DNA of 32,000 nucleotides from assembly GCF_008000775.2 (NCBI RefSeq), contig NZ_CP042905.2:1530001-1562000 (forward strand), given 5' to 3'. Source of the DNA: Promethearchaeum syntrophicum (GTDB lineage: Archaea > Asgardarchaeota > Lokiarchaeia > Sigyniarchaeales > Promethearchaeaceae). The notes beneath the pieces were generated by a model. It saw only the letters and a list, made by a program, of their open reading frames with translations. It ran no database searches and was not told the origin of the DNA. Both the position numbers and the translations under genes were made by a program. Below are positions 3,548 through 27,117 of this stretch, in pieces; positions within the stretch are counted from its first letter, which is position 1; every line of letters begins with the position of its first letter.

Positions 3548-4102
3548 TTGAAATCTATGAATGAAGGAAAAATAAACATACTCCCCTTTTGGTTACGGGT
3601 GATAAACATTAATCTGGGTGTTGCTATGGTAATACTTTCTGGATTGGCAATATTTCAAAATACCTTTATTTTATCGATTAAACTTACGTTACTTAGTATA
3701 ACCTTACTGTTGTTGTCTGGAGTTCTTCTTGCTAATGGGATCACCACAAGGAATTTCAGTCACAGTTTAATGGTCCTAAATGTCACTTCGGGATCGGTGA
3801 TCTTGGTGCTGGGAGCCATAACTCTTATTTTTCTGCAATTTGAAATCGATGTGTCCAAAATACTCCTTGTTGTTGGCCTATTAATCCATGCAGGTACTCG
3901 TATCGCCATCAGTTTCTCGAAATTAGCACTTCCATTTAAAATTAAATTATTTAATTTCTTAGTTGCCACTGTTCTAATTGCTCTCTCGATAGTTATCGTA
4001 ACAGACCTTCAATGGGCCTCGGAAACACTATTAGGTATAACTTTTCTTACCGTAGGCATGGAAAAAACCTTCATAGGAATTCAAGGCTATTATTTGGAAT
4101 AA
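3548..4102 (+). CDS. Multi-pass integral membrane protein (about 6 hydrophobic segments), function unknown
   Basis: 184-aa ORF made almost entirely of hydrophobic helices (LGVAMVILSGLAIF, LTLLSITLLLLSGVLLA, SGSVILVLGAITLIFL, ILLVVGLLIHAG, LVATVLIALSIVIV). The track start at 3548 is TTG; the first ATG is at 3557. Confidence 0.6.
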   Translation: MKSMNEGKINILPFWLRVININLGVAMVILSGLAIFQNTFILSIKLTLLSITLLLLSGVLLANGITTRNFSHSLMVLNVTSGSVILVLGAITLIFLQFEIDVSKILLVVGLLIHAGTRIAISFSKLALPFKIKLFNFLVATVLIALSIVIVTDLQWASETLLGITFLTVGMEKTFIGIQGYYLE

Positions 4103-4197
4103 AACACTCTCATTTTTAATTAATTTTATAGTGAAGGATAATATAATAAAAAAAATTAGTATAGTTCATCAGAAAACTAAGGATTTTAGTGAAGAAA

Positions 4198-5673
4198 CTA
4201 CAACCATTCGATAGCACCGATATCTGGAGCAATTCCAACAGGAACCGATGAATTAAAGAAATCAAATAGCACCCCAACATCTAATCCTGCATCAATACAC
4301 GGAGAGTTTGTTGTTAATCTGAAATCTCCCGAAATTGGATTAAAAAGCAAGGGATTTGCATTTAAGTTATTAACTATCGAATTACCTGAATCTCCATTAA
4401 GATTATTAAACTCTAAGGCGGAAACAGCTAAATCTTTATATATATAATTATCCCACCCATGAGAATTATATACCAAATTATGTTTAAATACATTACCGCC
4501 CATTTCCCGATTATGAATCCTGATCCCACCGTTTGTTTCAAGTAACAAGTTATTTATAATCAGATTATTTTCAACTTGGAGCACATTATCTTTTACCGAA
4601 CCTATCAGAATAATACCTTCACTTGCTGTGTTATAAATCACATTGTTAAACAGTCGATTGTCATGGCAAGCTTGGTGTTTATCCTCAGTCAATCCTGAAG
4701 CAAAGGCTGTGAAATCAAATCCATGAGCGTCTGTCCGGTCATTAGGATTTCGGACTGTATCGATAATATTATAATAATATGAATTATTATTCCCTTCAAC
4801 ATGATTTGTAATGGTCGTGTCCTTGATATAATTCCGATAGAATTCATTGTGATGAACATAACCTTCCCGTCCGAATGTTTCTAATCCTCTCATATAATCT
4901 ATATCTCCGCCGTAAATATAATTCTGGTAAATGTGATTATATGCGGTTTCGGCCAATTCAAATATCTGTGAAAGTCCTATCCCAGTATGTGGCCAATTGT
5001 AAACAGAATTATTATAAATTGCCCAATACTTAGCTCCATCAGTTAATTGAATTCCATCTCTTCCTGAAATTAATACTTTTCCCAATAATCCACTATCTAT
5101 AGTACAATTCCGAATAATTCCATGATCAGCAGATTTTGATTGACTATATGATCCAGTAATTCGTAATCCATATCCCCATGTATCCAAACCAATAAAGCAA
5201 TTTTCAATGGTTGTGTTTACTGATCCCCTAATAACAACACAAATTTCCGTTCCTTCCCTAAAATCCATGTTTTTAACATCAGTAAATTCAGTGTCTTGTA
5301 AAGTTAATGCATATTTTTTCCCATTGATTATTGGATGAGGACCAAAACCATAAGCACTCAAGATTATAGGATGGGTTTCATTTCCTTTGGAGACTAAGAT
5401 GATTTCTCCGTTCCATTCATCCCCTTTCTTGAATAGAATTATGGTTCCTGCCTCAAAATCCCATCGATTCACTTGATCAATCGTTTTCCAAGGTGATTCA
5501 GGACTTTCTCCATCGTTTCTATCATTACCAGTCGAAAAGCTTACATAATAGATTCCTCTGGGTTTCCACTCCCGGATATGACCATCAAAAATAGAAGGGA
5601 TTATTATAAATAGGGAAGAAATTAAAATTATTCCTATACCGATTCCAAATTTCGCTTTTTTCTTCATTACCAT
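4198..5673 (-). CDS. Secreted or membrane-anchored right-handed parallel beta-helix repeat protein
   Basis: 491-aa ORF. The N terminus KKKAKFGIGIGIILISSLFIIIPSIF is a signal peptide or anchor. The body carries iterated short turns (NCFIGLD, IRNCTIDSG, IYNNSVYNW, IYQNYIYGG, FYRNYIKD, LFNNVIYN, ENNLIINN, FKHNLVYN) typical of pectate-lyase/NosD-type beta-helix repeats. Confidence 0.7.
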   Translation of the reverse strand: MVMKKKAKFGIGIGIILISSLFIIIPSIFDGHIREWKPRGIYYVSFSTGNDRNDGESPESPWKTIDQVNRWDFEAGTIILFKKGDEWNGEIILVSKGNETHPIILSAYGFGPHPIINGKKYALTLQDTEFTDVKNMDFREGTEICVVIRGSVNTTIENCFIGLDTWGYGLRITGSYSQSKSADHGIIRNCTIDSGLLGKVLISGRDGIQLTDGAKYWAIYNNSVYNWPHTGIGLSQIFELAETAYNHIYQNYIYGGDIDYMRGLETFGREGYVHHNEFYRNYIKDTTITNHVEGNNNSYYYNIIDTVRNPNDRTDAHGFDFTAFASGLTEDKHQACHDNRLFNNVIYNTASEGIILIGSVKDNVLQVENNLIINNLLLETNGGIRIHNREMGGNVFKHNLVYNSHGWDNYIYKDLAVSALEFNNLNGDSGNSIVNNLNANPLLFNPISGDFRLTTNSPCIDAGLDVGVLFDFFNSSVPVGIAPDIGAIEWL

Positions 5674-23370: not shown

Positions 23371-23414
23371 GGTAAAAATCTACAATAACTTATGATTATT
23401 AGAAGGGATTCAAA

Positions 23415-24422
23415 ATGAAAGTTTACGTATGTGGCGGAACCGGTTTTATCGGGTATCAAGTGTGTTTACAGTTACTTGAAAAAGGGCATGAAGTTAGTTC
23501 AATCTCTCTAGGAGACGTTGAATTAGGATCGTGGTGGCCTAAAGATAAAATTAAGACAAAGATTGGGGATCTTTTTACCATGGAAGCTGATGAATTAGTG
23601 GAAATGTTTACGGGATATGATGCCATGGTATATGCTGTCGGTCCTGATGATAGATATACTCCAAAAGCTCCAGCTTACAAATTTTTTTATGATCGGTTGG
23701 TCCTAGCGTGTGCAAAAGTTGTAAAAGCAGCGCGGGATGCGGGTGTAAAAAAATGTGCTATTTGTAATTCATACTTTGCTTATTTTGATAGAATAAGGCC
23801 CGATGAACATTTAGCGGAGAAACATCCGTATATCCGATGCAGAGTAGAACAAGCTCAAAAATGCATTGAGATTGGAGGGGATAAGATGGCAGTATATATT
23901 ATGGAATTACCATACATTTTCGGTGTCCATCCCGTTCGTGCTCCAATTTGGAAAGATTTGTTTATCAAGCGACTGTTAAAGATGAAACCATATATTTTTT
24001 TCTTTAAAGGGGGTACTAATATGATTACCGTGAACCATGTTGCTGAGGCGATTGTAGGTGCAATTTTAAATGGAAGATCAAGTAAGAGGTACACCATTGG
24101 GGATAAAAATCTCACCTGGGTAGAATGGATATCATTAATGTTACCTGAAATGGGAATAGATCGAAAAATCAAGATTTTACCGCCATTTCTAGGCACTTTA
24201 TTTGCTAAACGGATGAAAAGAATTGAAGCAAAAAAAGGATTAGAACCGGGATTAGATTTAGACCATTTATTTAAGGATATTCAGTGTCGAGAGACTTATT
24301 TCGATCCTACATCCTCCCAAGAAGAATTAGGGTATACCGGGGGGGAATTGGAAGAAGCTATCAAGGAAACGGTCAAAAAGTGTATGGAATTGATAAATGA
24401 TGAACCCCAAATAAATTCCTAA
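23415..24422 (+). CDS. NAD(P)-dependent epimerase/dehydratase-type (extended SDR) oxidoreductase
   Basis: The N-terminal Rossmann motif is MKVYVCGGTGFIGYQVCLQLLEKGHEV (GxxGxxG). The length is 335 aa. It lies 44 bp downstream of the ADH gene on the same strand. Confidence 0.75.
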   Translation: MKVYVCGGTGFIGYQVCLQLLEKGHEVSSISLGDVELGSWWPKDKIKTKIGDLFTMEADELVEMFTGYDAMVYAVGPDDRYTPKAPAYKFFYDRLVLACAKVVKAARDAGVKKCAICNSYFAYFDRIRPDEHLAEKHPYIRCRVEQAQKCIEIGGDKMAVYIMELPYIFGVHPVRAPIWKDLFIKRLLKMKPYIFFFKGGTNMITVNHVAEAIVGAILNGRSSKRYTIGDKNLTWVEWISLMLPEMGIDRKIKILPPFLGTLFAKRMKRIEAKKGLEPGLDLDHLFKDIQCRETYFDPTSSQEELGYTGGELEEAIKETVKKCMELINDEPQINS

Positions 24423-24496
24423 TATAGAAATATATTTTAGAAGAAAAACAAGATATGGATTTATCCTTTTTTTTCCATATTTAACCTATTTTTTTT

Positions 24497-25144
24497 CTAT
24501 TGAATAGAATTGTGCCGTTTTTCTTTGATAGGATGAATATCTGGAATAGGAACACTAATTATCGAAAGAAAATGAGTATTTGGAGTCTTTTTATTACGAA
24601 ATTTTTCTAAATTCTTTTTTAAATCTTCCATGATCCCCTTATACTCTAACCATTCCTCTTCGGTATTAATGGATATTGGAGGAATCATTAAATCAACTTT
24701 GTCACTTAAGTTAATTTTATCATCTGAATTCAATATTTCATCAATATGTTCCTCCATGAATATCCCGGCATAGTATGTAATATTTCTTGGCCAAGAAGCT
24801 AATGCTTGAAACAAACGTGAAATACCTAAAAAATATATTTTTTTTTCTTCTTTAGTTGAACTCTCTAAGATTTCATCCACTTTATTTATACTTTTAAACG
24901 CATCTAATGGCTTCTCTGTAAGTTTATAGAATTTTCCCCAGCCTAATGATTCATTTTTATCTATCTCGAGATATTTTAGTTCAACTAATTTCTTAACATG
25001 CCCTAAGGTCGTGCTTTCAGATTTATTTATCATTTTTGAAAGTAATTTTAAATTAAGCGAACCAAATGTAATAATTTGGGCAATTATCCCCATTTGTGTT
25101 TCGTTTCCAAACACTTTCATGTATTCTTCAAACTCGATTGCCAT
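24497..25144 (-). CDS. Winged helix-turn-helix (ArsR-like) transcriptional regulator with an uncharacterised C-terminal domain
   Basis: The N-terminal 85 aa reads FGNETQMGIIAQIITFGSLNLKLLSKMINKSESTTLGHVKKLVELKYLEIDKNES..GKFYKLTEK. This fits the ArsR/wHTH pattern: recognition helix S.stvs.Hlk.L...g.., with the wing ...Y.LT. It is divergent from the peptide cassette. Confidence 0.6.
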   Translation of the reverse strand: MAIEFEEYMKVFGNETQMGIIAQIITFGSLNLKLLSKMINKSESTTLGHVKKLVELKYLEIDKNESLGWGKFYKLTEKPLDAFKSINKVDEILESSTKEEKKIYFLGISRLFQALASWPRNITYYAGIFMEEHIDEILNSDDKINLSDKVDLMIPPISINTEEEWLEYKGIMEDLKKNLEKFRNKKTPNTHFLSIISVPIPDIHPIKEKRHNSIQ

Positions 25145-25175
25145 TAAATAATATATAGATTTGGACTTTAAAAAT

Positions 25176-25269
25176 AATTCGATTTTCGAATTAATTCTAA
25201 ATTCGAAGCATTTAAATATGTGAGTTGATTATTATTATTTAGAACTCGAATTAATTCGAAAATCGAATT
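25176..25269. promoter_or_regulatory. Perfect 22-bp inverted-repeat pair (candidate operator pair) in the divergent promoter region
   Basis: The left arm at 25176..25197 is AATTCGATTTTCGAATTAATTC. The right arm at 25248..25269 is GAATTAATTCGAAAATCGAATT, the exact reverse complement. Each arm itself contains AATTCGA-N3-TCGAATT and the 10-bp palindrome GAATTAATTC. The arms lie 32-53 bp upstream of the regulator ATG and 26-47 bp upstream of the first peptide ATG. Confidence 0.55.
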
Positions 25270-25294
25270 ACTTCTAAAAAAAAAGTGAAAAAAA

Positions 25295-25384
25295 ATGAAA
25301 AAGAATCGAAATTTAAACGTAAAGAAAAACGCCTTTGATCTTATGATAGAGAATCCCGGATTAATTTGCTCAATCCGAGTATAA
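25295..25384 (+). CDS. Micro-ORF 1, 29-aa conserved peptide MKKNRNLNVKKNAFDLMIENPGLICSIRV
   Basis: ATG to TAA spans 30 codons. It is one of three in-frame paralogues with synonymous-biased divergence. It falls below the ORF-track size cutoff. Confidence 0.5.
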   Translation: MKKNRNLNVKKNAFDLMIENPGLICSIRV

Positions 25385-25428
25385 AGTCACAAATTTTTTT
25401 TAAATTAAAATCTAAATAGGGGAAAAAA

Positions 25429-25518
25429 ATGAAAAAAAACTTAAAATTATACGTAAAGAAAAACGCCTTTGATCTGATGATAGAGAATTCCGGTTTAATC
25501 TGCTCAATCCGAGTATAA
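25429..25518 (+). CDS. Micro-ORF 2, 29-aa conserved peptide MKKNLKLYVKKNAFDLMIENSGLICSIRV
   Basis: ATG to TAA spans 30 codons. It is preceded by GGGGAAAAAA and followed by a T7 run. It is a paralogue of micro-ORFs 1 and 3. Confidence 0.5.
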   Translation: MKKNLKLYVKKNAFDLMIENSGLICSIRV

Positions 25519-25562
25519 AATTAATAAAATTTTTTTAAACTAAAACTAAACAGGGGAAAAAA

Positions 25563-25652
25563 ATGAAAAAAACTCAAAAATTATACATAAAGAAAAATGC
25601 CTTTGACCTTATGGTTCAGAATCCCGGATTAATAAGCTCAATCCGAGTATAA
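25563..25652 (+). CDS. Micro-ORF 3, 29-aa conserved peptide MKKTQKLYIKKNAFDLMVQNPGLISSIRV
   Basis: ATG to TAA spans 30 codons. It is preceded by GGGGAAAAAA and followed by a T6 run. It is a paralogue of micro-ORFs 1 and 2. Confidence 0.5.
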   Translation: MKKTQKLYIKKNAFDLMVQNPGLISSIRV

Positions 25653-25785
25653 ATTCAATGGACAATTTTTTAATAATTTAAATATTTACTTCGATTTTTT
25701 GATTCCAATTGCCAGTCAAGATTTGTTTTCAGATTTGATTTCTGATAACAAAATTATTTTAACAAGATTATCATAGATTTTAACA

Positions 25786-27117
25786 ATGATTGAAGAAATT
25801 AATCAAATTTTTATCTTGATCTTGATTCTCTCTTTAATCTTTGTATATTCGAAAGAAGAAATCGACGCCACTCTGTTCATTCTTTTATTTGCCATTATTG
25901 GAGCAATCTTCACAGGACTCGTTTTTAATGCAGAACCCATTGATTTTTTCGACTATATACCTCTTCAAACATTAACATTTTTAATTTTCATGGATATGTT
26001 TATAAAGATTCTAATCAAAGACAAGATATTTGAATTTTTTACTATCAAGTTGATTCATTTAACGCATGCAAATATACGCTTACTCTTTTATTTATTATGT
26101 ATTGCCAGTGCTTTAGTCTCAGGAATCATGGAGGACGTATCCGTTGCTCTCATTATCAATCCGATAATTTTTCGCACGGCGAGAATTTTGAAATTTAAAG
26201 CAAAACCATTTATCATGGGAACTACTGCATCGATTTTAATTGGGAATCTTTTAACCCCTTTTGCCACTCCTGTAAGTATCATTATATCTTCTGGGTTTAA
26301 TCTGAATATGGGGTGGTATTTCAAATATTTCGCGTTATTATTTGTAATTTTACTAACAACCAGTTTAATTCTATTTGACAGATTGTATATTAAGAAACTT
26401 CCTCCTCCGTCGGAGAAAGATGTTCAAATCTTGATGACGATTATGGATCCTGAGCTGTTGATTGTTAAAAAGGGACGCTTTTATCGTCTCATTCTATATT
26501 TAGTAATTATGCTCATTTGCATAGCGTTCAACATCCTCCCATTCCTAGTTGTGACTTTAATTACGGTATTTACATTAATAGTTGAAAAACTCAAATTCAA
26601 CAATGTTTTAAGAAAAGCAAATTGGAATCTACTTTTTCTATATAGTGGCTTATTCATATTAATTGGCTGTATGACTATTAATGGAACAATTGATATGATT
26701 CAATCTGTTTTGAGCACTCTCATCGGGGGAAATTTGATCATAGCTATTGTGATTATAGTGATTTTTGGAAGCTTACTATCGAGTTTTGTTTCTAAGAGTT
26801 TGACAGCAATAACGTTTATTGCGATTGTCTCCAATTTATTTTTAGTTACCTTCACAGATCCAGTAGATCAAGTGATTTTAATTATGGCAGTAAATATCGC
26901 TGTTCTTGTAGGGGGTAATTTCGTTCCTCAAGCATCTAGTTTTATCTTATTTACCATCGAAATGGCGAAATCAGAAAAAGTCCCCGATTTAACCTATAAT
27001 ATTTTCAAAAAACAGATGAGGAAATACTCATTACTATCCGTTTCAATTACCTTAATCTACTATTTTTGTCTTGTGCTAATACTTAAATTACCCGTTTTGC
27101 TATCCACCGGCTCTTAA
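25786..27117 (+). CDS. Ion-transporter-superfamily permease (ArsB/NhaD / CitMHS-like), about 10-12 TM segments
   Basis: 443 aa, almost entirely hydrophobic. Segments such as LLFYLLCIASALVSGIMEDVSVALIINPIIFRTARILKFKAKPFIMGTTASILIGNLLTPFATPVSIIISS resemble the ArsB/NhaD pattern: l..ta.lSa.l.N....l...Pi.....g..p.p.l.....an.Gg..TpiG.p.N. Confidence 0.55.
   Translation: MIEEINQIFILILILSLIFVYSKEEIDATLFILLFAIIGAIFTGLVFNAEPIDFFDYIPLQTLTFLIFMDMFIKILIKDKIFEFFTIKLIHLTHANIRLLFYLLCIASALVSGIMEDVSVALIINPIIFRTARILKFKAKPFIMGTTASILIGNLLTPFATPVSIIISSGFNLNMGWYFKYFALLFVILLTTSLILFDRLYIKKLPPPSEKDVQILMTIMDPELLIVKKGRFYRLILYLVIMLICIAFNILPFLVVTLITVFTLIVEKLKFNNVLRKANWNLLFLYSGLFILIGCMTINGTIDMIQSVLSTLIGGNLIIAIVIIVIFGSLLSSFVSKSLTAITFIAIVSNLFLVTFTDPVDQVILIMAVNIAVLVGGNFVPQASSFILFTIEMAKSEKVPDLTYNIFKKQMRKYSLLSVSITLIYYFCLVLILKLPVLLSTGS

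Follow-up and report, generated by a model that had tools for sequence, protein, structure and literature searches.

A tandem array of three putative small genes of a Promethearchaeum-restricted family in the cultured Asgard archaeon Promethearchaeum syntrophicum MK-D1

Promethearchaeum syntrophicum MK-D1 serves as the reference among cultured Asgard archaea, and almost half of its genes are annotated as hypothetical. The stretch of its genome considered here, called the window, comprises 32,000 nucleotides (positions 1,530,001 to 1,562,000 of the forward strand of contig NZ_CP042905.2, assembly GCF_008000775.2). Positions given without a contig label are those of the window; the contigs used for comparison bear labels beginning with L. 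In the intergenic region between the regulator gene DSAG12_01978 and the permease gene DSAG12_01979, the window holds a tandem array of three repeat units, each with a short open reading frame (ORF), to which a preliminary description made from the letters of the sequence had drawn attention. These ORFs are three previously unannotated small genes of a genus-restricted family, one paralogue of which had already been deposited as a hypothetical protein.

The repeat array

Tandem Repeats Finder detects a period of 134 bp at 25289-25659, with 2.8 copies and 85% matches (score 537). Each unit contains, on the plus strand, an ATG-initiated ORF encoding a peptide of 29 aa: mini-gene 1 (MKKNRNLNVKKNAFDLMIENPGLICSIRV) at 25295-25384, mini-gene 2 (MKKNLKLYVKKNAFDLMIENSGLICSIRV) at 25429-25518 and mini-gene 3 (MKKTQKLYIKKNAFDLMVQNPGLISSIRV), the nearest of the three to the annotated paralogue DSAG12_01949, at 25563-25652. 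An ORF list with a minimum of 20 aa reproduces exactly the frames and peptides of the preliminary description. The default list, with its threshold of 60 aa, omits all three, as had been stated. The back-translated pattern KKNAFDLM has three matches in the array, against 0.11 by chance, and none elsewhere in the 32 kb. Fifteen codon columns vary among the three copies and six of these are purely synonymous (K3, N12, D15, L16, G22 and I24), the codon for Ile24 being ATT, ATC and ATA; these earlier counts were re-derived from the sequences and are correct.

A Shine-Dalgarno-like motif precedes every ORF. It is GGGG in copy 2 (25419-25422) and copy 3 (25553-25556), while in copy 1 GTGA can be read from the sequence 6 nt (six A) upstream of the ATG (25285-25288). 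The GGGG-A6 that had been described in front of each ORF is therefore present in copies 2 and 3, but is GTGA-A6 in copy 1. The T runs reported after the stop codons were all found on the plus strand: T8 at 25394-25401, 9 nt downstream of the stop of copy 1, T7 at 25530-25536 after copy 2 and T6 at 25666-25671 after copy 3. The T8 run is a putative oligo-T terminator and may also serve as the TATA region of copy 2.

On the minus strand, an ORF of 31 aa with a TTG start lies opposite copy 2 (25412-25507), and one of 37 aa with the same start codon lies opposite the copy on contig L006 (931-1044). Since none is listed opposite copies 1 and 3, this antisense ORF is probably incidental.

Coding character of the frames

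Nine further distinct copies were found on seven Promethearchaeum contigs (L006, L007, L008, L013, L014, L015 and L016). These homologues were recovered by a peptide-alignment search and by a search with homologues of the winged helix-turn-helix (wHTH) regulator. The 12 distinct copies of the principal type, called type A, come from eight contigs and can be aligned without gaps over 90 nt. All of them start with ATG, have exactly 29 codons and end with TAA. Pooled over the 12 copies, the synonymous divergence (pS) is 0.367 and the nonsynonymous divergence (pN) 0.142, which gives a ratio (omega) of 0.31. This is the lowest value of the six frames, the remaining five ranging from 0.45 to 1.81, and a single one of 300 column shuffles yields so low a value. 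The minimum numbers of changes at codon positions 1, 2 and 3 are 20, 9 and 30 (chi-square p = 0.004). All length differences between arrays fall in the spacers and the ORFs are free of indels. The frame therefore keeps its length and is subject to purifying selection in the 12 copies.

The signals around the frames are retained as well. Despite divergent flanks, a purine-rich motif (GGGG, GGTG or GTGA), of a type complementary to the usual archaeal 16S 3' end, precedes the ATG in 12 out of 12 copies. A run of 6-13 T, the usual archaeal termination signal, is located 9-13 nt past the stop in 10 out of 12.

The preliminary description had argued for selection on the translated product rather than for a non-coding repeat, and had proposed to look for frame-breaking indels in homologues and to calculate dN/dS. 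Both examinations speak for its view, as no such indel occurs and the 29 codons, ATG and TAA are kept throughout. Because the frame is conserved in all 12 copies, omega is low and indels are confined to spacers, the units are, as far as sequence comparison can tell, very probably real translated small genes.

It is very improbable, in comparison, that the ORFs are incidental, being either part of a non-coding element (a sequence like a miniature inverted-repeat transposable element (MITE), a terminator/promoter cassette or a structured small RNA) or a remnant of the 5' part of a larger gene. The units are indeed A-rich at their start and T-rich at their end, with an internal inverted repeat, and many wHTH proteins have a first helix and turn similar to NAFDLMxxNPGL. 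However, such an element would not be expected to keep frame, length, start and stop in 12 out of 12 copies, with changes concentrated at third positions and indels in spacers only. Searches with Rfam gave nothing at gathering score in the whole window, and only noise (E up to 5) at 25100-25800; ARAGORN detected no tRNA in the window, and there is no covariation. Among 1.84 billion protein representatives no longer protein, and in particular no full-length wHTH homologue, carries the mini-gene N-terminus, nor is there a Pfam HTH match. An origin as a MITE or a gene fragment was rejected on the basis of the frame conservation and the lack of a longer homologue.

Members and distribution of the family

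An exhaustive profile search of the 1.84 billion representatives yielded a sole true match, P0037, which is QEE16120.1, the product of DSAG12_01949. This fourth paralogue of MK-D1 is annotated as a 'hypothetical protein' of 32 aa (MKNMKKTQKKYIKKNAFDLMVENPGLISSIRV). Searches with the peptides in Pfam, NCBIfam, PADLOC and the PDB sequences gave no credible match, one PADLOC hit (E = 0.027) and two PDB hits (E at least 1) being noise, and literature searches found no published description of the family. The earlier statement that it belongs to no described family thus stands with respect to these databases and Rfam, but has to be amended because the paralogue had been deposited.

A second hit of the profile search, P0038 (E = 2e-15), was rejected as a homologue. 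It is a tandem-repeat protein of 1009 aa from the representative library with GFDYMIGQPGVLSGVRV ten times, and its score is the sum of ten weak 16-residue copies. The roughly ten copies of ...SGFDYMIGQPGVLSGVRV... resemble NAFDLMIENPGLICSIRV at 9 of 16 positions, which we judge to be a summed-repeat artefact.

The number of copies per array varies from one to three, and array periods of 134, 137 and 140 bp occur. Contigs L007 and L008 have two copies each, with a period of 137 bp, between a regulator of 55% identity and the permease. On L013 a single copy lies between a regulator of 61% identity and an ABC-ATPase-like gene, and the metagenome contig L006 also has one copy. The copies on L014, L015 and L016 are from two metagenome-assembled genomes of Promethearchaeum sp. 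DSAG12_01949 directly precedes a bactofilin-type gene, DSAG12_01950, and this context matches that of L014 and L015. The family occupies at least three genomic contexts in Promethearchaeum.

A shorter relative of 24-28 aa, called type B, follows the type A copies on L014 (1279-1365) and L015 (5141-5215), where it closes the arrays upstream of the bactofilin-type gene. The type B peptides, MKKNEKNKIKLYIKNQTYDSGLLYPFRA and MKKNQKHYIKKQANDSGLLYPFRA, have the N-terminus in common with type A, as well as the GGGG motif and the AATCAATA-T(n) 3' flank, but end in DSGLLYPFRA with a TGA stop. Synonymous differences between the two type B genes affect Pro and Arg codons. A long AAT/AATAAT low-complexity tract separates the peptide array from the bactofilin-domain gene (L014 1420-1540, L015 5290-5350).

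The last units of the MK-D1 array (25653-25671) and of the L016 array (5091-5110) share a distinct 3' flank, TCAATGGA followed by a T run, whereas internal units carry AATCAATAAAA instead. This distinct flank hints that the array ends are orthologous and that arrays may grow by internal duplication.

No family member was found at the bactofilin loci of other Lokiarchaeia genera (L017-L022), in the scan of viral contigs or in the first scan of a genome collection. A word-indexed protein search with the four peptides concatenated gave no match either, but it is a weak negative, as the known 32-aa paralogue was missed too. As far as these searches reach, the family is confined to the genus Promethearchaeum.

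Properties of the peptides

The peptides are basic, with a net charge of +2.5 to +4.5 in 11 of the 12 copies and an isoelectric point of about 10. Their grand average of hydropathy lies between -0.66 and +0.11. The highest Kyte-Doolittle mean over 15 residues does not exceed 1.17 and no window resembles a transmembrane segment. In an AlphaFold2 (AF2) model, based on an alignment of three sequences, two short helices appear at residues 13-19 and 21-25, with a mean predicted local distance difference test score (pLDDT) of 67. Ten residues are invariant in seven diverse copies (M1, K2, K3, D15, G22, I24, S26, I27, R28 and V29), while the N-terminus is the most variable part. A cysteine is found five residues from the C-terminus in 11 of the 12 copies; copy 3 and DSAG12_01949 have serine there. 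For detection by mass spectrometry the predicted segments NAFDLMIENPGLICSIR, NAFDLMIENSGLICSIR and NAFDLMVQNPGLISSIR can serve as targets.

Two candidate roles were discarded. A leaderless bacteriocin or amphipathic peptide is not indicated by the hydrophobicity, nor by the maximal helical hydrophobic moment over 18 residues (0.21-0.39), which is matched by 34-92% of shuffled sequences. CaaX-like prenylation does not fit, as the cysteine is five and not four residues from the end, is replaced by serine in two copies, and has a gene of the PEMT/ICMT family next to it in one context only. That gene encodes a methyltransferase (L006 245-721, plus strand) and lies directly upstream of a peptide copy with the cysteine.

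The preliminary description had compared the peptides to a leader-plus-core or signalling-peptide family. In its most specific form, the proposal would be an exported signal or a precursor of a pheromone or of a ribosomally synthesized and post-translationally modified peptide (RiPP), with a basic N-terminal leader and a GLICSIRV core; maturation and export would be provided from elsewhere, and the adjacent regulator would sense the peptide, as in Rgg/SHP or arbitrium systems. Short MKK-initiated peptides in tandem diverged copies, divergent from an HTH regulator, would suit such a system. So would the ABC ATPase-like gene after the L013 copy, the PEMT/ICMT-family gene before the L006 copy, the recurrent cysteine near the C-terminus, and type B, which retains the N-terminus and exchanges the end for DSGLLYPFRA. 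Yet there is no hydrophobic h-region or other recognisable export signal, and no maturase, protease or dedicated exporter recurs across contexts. A tabulation of neighbours showed that the flanking genes vary between family loci, and none of the family contexts contains a RiPP maturase (radical SAM, LanM, YcaO or protease), though one may lie elsewhere in the genome. Moreover, the regulator is a small wHTH protein rather than a receptor with tetratricopeptide repeats (TPR) and is missing from other contexts, the cysteine is serine in copy 3 and DSAG12_01949, and the variability of the N-terminus is the opposite of what a conserved leader would show. The comparison has little support, and we regard an exported signal as improbable.

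A nucleotide-level constraint at the end of the frames

Conservation in the last third of the ORF seems not to be a matter of the protein alone, a point that the preliminary description had overlooked. Synonymous divergence is 0.50 in codons 2-20 and 0.12 in codons 21-29 when codon 24 is excluded; the synonymous sites of this part are thus about four times more conserved than elsewhere in the ORF. Codon 24 by itself is saturated (1.06). Among the codons that are unusual for a genome of 33% G+C, several have become fixed, namely ATC (12 of 12 copies), xCC (11 of 12) and TGC (11 of 11), as well as CGA or CGT to the exclusion of AGA.

The same part of the ORF harbours an inverted repeat, CGGATT...AATCCG, that spans codons 21-28 (nucleotides 63-68 and 78-83). 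It is located at 25357-25377 in copy 1 and at 25625-25645 in copy 3; the corresponding element of copy 2 (25491-25511) has one broken pair (CGGTTT). The free wobble position of codon 24 falls in its loop. Fold energies of the stem are -5.2 to -12.6 kcal/mol on the minus strand and -4.1 to -6.5 kcal/mol on the plus strand. The proportion of paired cells is 85.8% on the minus strand versus 76.7% on the plus strand, G-U pairs making the minus-strand stem longer. No pair of the helix is changed on both sides, on either strand, and folding of whole units gives z values near 0 for both strands, except for the minus strand of copy 1 (z = -2.08). As the synonymous conservation coincides with the inverted repeat, a second constraint is likely, which would reflect a function of codons 21-28 at the DNA or RNA level, on one strand or the other. 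A preference of the mini-gene ORFs for C-ending codons could account for part of it.

A function on the minus strand would be expected if the locus were a pair of a plus-strand peptide and a cis-antisense RNA, similar to type I toxin-antitoxin systems. A minus-strand RNA of about 90 nt, starting with a CUCGGAUUGAGC...AAUCCGGG stem-loop and ending at T runs complementary to the A-rich start of the unit, would then repress the peptide mRNA, and the tandem duplication would be reminiscent of ibs/sib and ldr in E. coli. We hold this to be unlikely, although several features are in agreement with it. On the minus strand the stem gains in length and stability, copy 1 being the one unit with a notable fold there. 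The same strand has T8 and T7 runs past the complement of the ORF and an A/T-rich, TATA-like stretch before the stem, the synonymous sites of the stem are conserved with only the loop codon free, and the module is accessory, multi-copy and strain-variable. Against this, the peptide is neither hydrophobic nor membrane-like, unlike type I toxins, and each variation in the stem breaks a pair without compensation, while the whole-unit folds of copies 2 and 3 are unremarkable. TATA-like motifs and T runs are cheap in DNA of 33% G+C, and Rfam offers no match, a BsrG-like hit with E = 3.6 being noise.

The regulator and the control region

The regulator gene DSAG12_01978 (24497-25144, minus strand) is divergent from the array and encodes an ArsR/MarR-like winged-helix protein of 215 aa. 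Its wHTH domain is N-terminal; the C-terminal region, some 130 aa long, is of unknown fold. In Pfam, HTH_24 scores slightly under its cut-off and no TPR is found. The AF2 model (pLDDT 52) is poor in the C-terminal half; in the PDB it best matches wHTH proteins of the ArsR/MarR type. Homologues of the regulator adjoin the peptide arrays on L007, L008 and L013. On L016, the gene divergent from the two-copy peptide array is a different one (3794-4678, minus strand), coding for a 294-aa fusion of an ArsR-type HTH and a small GTPase domain like those of Gtr1/RagA/Arf, with PAS-domain genes beyond it.

The region between the regulator and mini-gene 1 contains a 31-nt inverted repeat whose arms are 94% complementary. 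The left arm (25167-25197) holds the operator-like core TTCGAATTAATTC, and the right arm, GAATTAATTCGAAAATCGAATTA (25248-25278), is part of what is presumably the 5' leader of mini-gene 1. The repeat is rich in TCGAATTAATTCGA-type palindromes and flanks a TATA box-like motif, TTTAAATA (25211-25218, plus strand), which was read from the sequence and is the putative promoter of the first mini-gene. This motif is invariant in MK-D1, L007, L013 and L009 and also occurs upstream of the copies on L006 and L015; L014 has TTTATATA at that place. Conservation of the left-arm region extends to L007 and L013 and likewise to L009, a contig devoid of peptides. In these four sequences the mean column identity of the control region is 82%, while the regulator protein of L009 is only about 52% identical (51-52% in two comparisons). 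In L009 (1613-1761) the same leader ends at the ATG of a transporter of the major facilitator superfamily (MFS), and the start of peptide 1 takes the position of this start codon.

On the basis of the shared, conserved control region and the wHTH nature of the regulator, we infer that the divergent promoter is under the control of DSAG12_01978, with peptide 1 as its first cistron. In the published transcriptome of MK-D1, expressed as reads per kilobase per million (RPKM), the values are 277 for DSAG12_01949, 237 for the permease and 0 for the regulator, whose neighbours have 225-308 (Imachi et al. 2020, Suppl. Table 3, PMC7015854). The zero could reflect true silence or an artefact of mapping or annotation.

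Downstream genes and the accessory nature of the array

The co-directional neighbour downstream of the array, DSAG12_01979 (25786-27117, plus strand; QEE16150), encodes an SLC13/CitMHS permease. Its own upstream region (25695-25785, plus strand) lies outside the repeat and aligns with L005 and L007. As L005 has this homologous region but neither peptides nor a regulator, the expression of the permease need not depend on the array. On L007 the permease is split into two ORFs of 224 and 188 aa (3732-5047), versus one ORF of 472 aa on L008 (2782-4200), although the peptide regions are identical, which points to a frameshift or an assembly error.

In L001-L005, with a permease of at least 90% identity, an alcohol dehydrogenase (ADH)-like gene runs directly into the permease gene, and regulator and peptides are absent. 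By comparison, MK-D1 has about 2.4 kb extra, comprising the gene for an NAD-dependent epimerase/dehydratase (DSAG12_01977, 23415-24422, plus strand), the wHTH gene and the array. Contigs L011 and L012 have kept the 3' flank of a unit together with a truncated regulator that lacks the wHTH domain, and are by their sequence deletion derivatives. The array is thus shown, by comparison of close relatives, to be an accessory module that can be present, absent or deleted. The variable spot, corresponding to 23371-25725, is empty in L001-L005, holds a regulator and two peptides in L007 and L008, and holds the epimerase, the regulator and three peptides in MK-D1. On L013 a regulator and a single peptide occupy it, and an ABC ATPase comes next in place of the permease.

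The position of the arrays in front of other genes raises the question of a role in cis. The peptides could be leader or arrest peptides, of which a ribosome arriving at the invariant ...SIRV-TAA end abuts the oligo-T run and modulates termination, either intrinsic or mediated by aCPSF1/FttA. Read-through into the next unit and the downstream gene would thereby be controlled, and tandem copies would sharpen the response. Conservation of protein and nucleotides is indeed strongest in the last nine codons up to the invariant TAA. The spacer between stop and T run is nearly constant (9-13 nt, often AATCAATAAAA), even in the divergent type B units. A co-directional gene, whether for the SLC13 permease, an ABC ATPase, a bactofilin-domain protein or a 66-aa ORF, begins within about 30-190 nt of all seven arrays with a visible downstream flank, and peptide 1 sits where L009 has the start codon of its transporter. 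However, the permease retains its own upstream region, one that in L005 serves without any peptides, the downstream genes are mutually unrelated, and the entire peptide is under selection instead of the C-terminus alone. Co-orientation in four independent contexts is statistically not meaningful. To our knowledge, attenuation by a leader peptide has never been demonstrated in archaea. A cis-acting cassette is therefore an unlikely explanation, if the least unlikely of the alternatives to a small-protein family. About one chance in ten can be given to its most elaborate variant, a translation-sensing terminator, in which a ribosome at ...C-S-I-R-V-TAA and the melting of a CGGAUU/AAUCCG hairpin would decide on termination by the polymerase or by FttA/aCPSF1. 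If true, it would be the first leader-peptide attenuator in Archaea, with tandem stacking for a steeper response.

Proposed function of the array

Taken as a whole, the interpretation that we prefer, to which we give an even chance, is that of a tandem array of three autonomous translated mini-genes belonging to a genus-restricted small-protein family. Each unit would consist of a Shine-Dalgarno-like motif, the ORF, a spacer of 9-13 nt and an oligo-T terminator. The regulator would bind the TCGAATTAATTCGA-type inverted repeats on both sides of the TATA box and gate transcription of the array, just as its homologue in L009 appears to gate the MFS transporter. Copies 2 and 3 would be transcribed either by read-through or from TATA-like T/A stretches of their own; if the T runs are leaky, the number of copies may set the dosage. 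More tentatively, and with somewhat less than an even chance, the product would be a soluble basic peptide in which a Lys-rich N-terminus is followed by a short helix (NAFDLMIEN), an N-[PS]-G turn and the invariant ...SIRV end. This peptide would act in trans by binding a partner protein or nucleic acid, and would be neither a secreted signal nor a membrane toxin nor a cis-acting leader.

Several points weigh against this interpretation. With such tiny ORFs, and copies that share a common descent, the dN/dS statistics are modest. The RPKM of 277 belongs to the paralogue DSAG12_01949, where reads from several copies might be counted together. The regulator is not obligate, as L014, L015 and L006 have other neighbours and L016 has the HTH-GTPase gene. 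The presence of a co-directional gene behind all seven arrays with a visible downstream flank also fits a role in cis. The low synonymous divergence of codons 21-29 is conservation that the protein does not fully explain, and a role in trans is the default reading.

Significance

The find is modest and narrow in scope. It is a gain for annotation, since a small-protein family was missed at the array locus, with three genes there and at least four in the genome. The locus supplies a defined, though predicted, module of regulator and operator, combined with a presence/absence polymorphism among strains. The family offers a concrete positive-control target for small-protein proteomics and ribosome profiling (Ribo-seq) in Asgard archaea. 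The combination of coding and nucleotide-level constraint next to oligo-T terminators makes it a tractable place to study the interplay of termination and translation. Should the product be merely a strain-variable small protein, the impact would be limited to better annotation.

Comparison with known systems

Several known systems resemble the array in part. With the RRNPP systems (Rgg/SHP of Firmicutes and the phage arbitrium pair AimR/AimP) it has in common a short MKK peptide gene that is divergent from an HTH regulator and a conserved C-terminus. In contrast to these, the regulator is a small wHTH protein without TPR, the peptide is non-hydrophobic and lacks an export signal, no machinery of the Opp or PptAB type recurs, and the peptides of L006, L014, L015 and L016 occur without this regulator.

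The ibs/sib and ldr/rdl loci of E. coli are likewise accessory and built of tandem units of about 130-140 bp, each with a tiny ORF and a potentially structured antisense strand bounded by T runs. The peptides described here are basic and soluble-looking rather than membrane helices, and there is no relationship in sequence or in Rfam. Leader peptides such as TnaC, SpeFL and the fungal arginine attenuator peptide are similar in being encoded by a short ORF, of which the C-terminus and stop are most conserved, ahead of a termination signal and a downstream gene that is often a transporter. These are single-copy elements, each tied to one operon, whereas the present arrays precede unrelated genes and the permease has an upstream region of its own.

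Aureocin A70 and garvicin KS, with three to four genes, are reminiscent of the array as tandem paralogous cationic peptides of about 30 residues without leaders, accessory and with a regulator or transporter nearby. Here, by contrast, a Trp/Gly-rich amphipathic helix and recurring immunity or export genes are lacking. The difference from RiPP arrays is that no context contains a maturase and that the N-terminus is variable.

The array agrees best with the generic class of small proteins: fewer than 50 codons, missed by default gene calling, provided with a ribosome-binding motif of their own, lineage-restricted, conserved in amino acid sequence and, at this locus, co-regulated with or adjacent to a transporter. 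The micro-proteins sP26 and sP36 of Methanosarcina mazei and SgrT and MntS of E. coli were missed by annotation in the same way. Small ORFs of Haloferax have been seen by ribosome profiling (PMC7261190). Compared with such known micro-proteins, the mini-genes of MK-D1, known here from their sequence alone, are set apart by their tandem triplication, their variation in copy number and the overlapping constraint at the nucleotide level.

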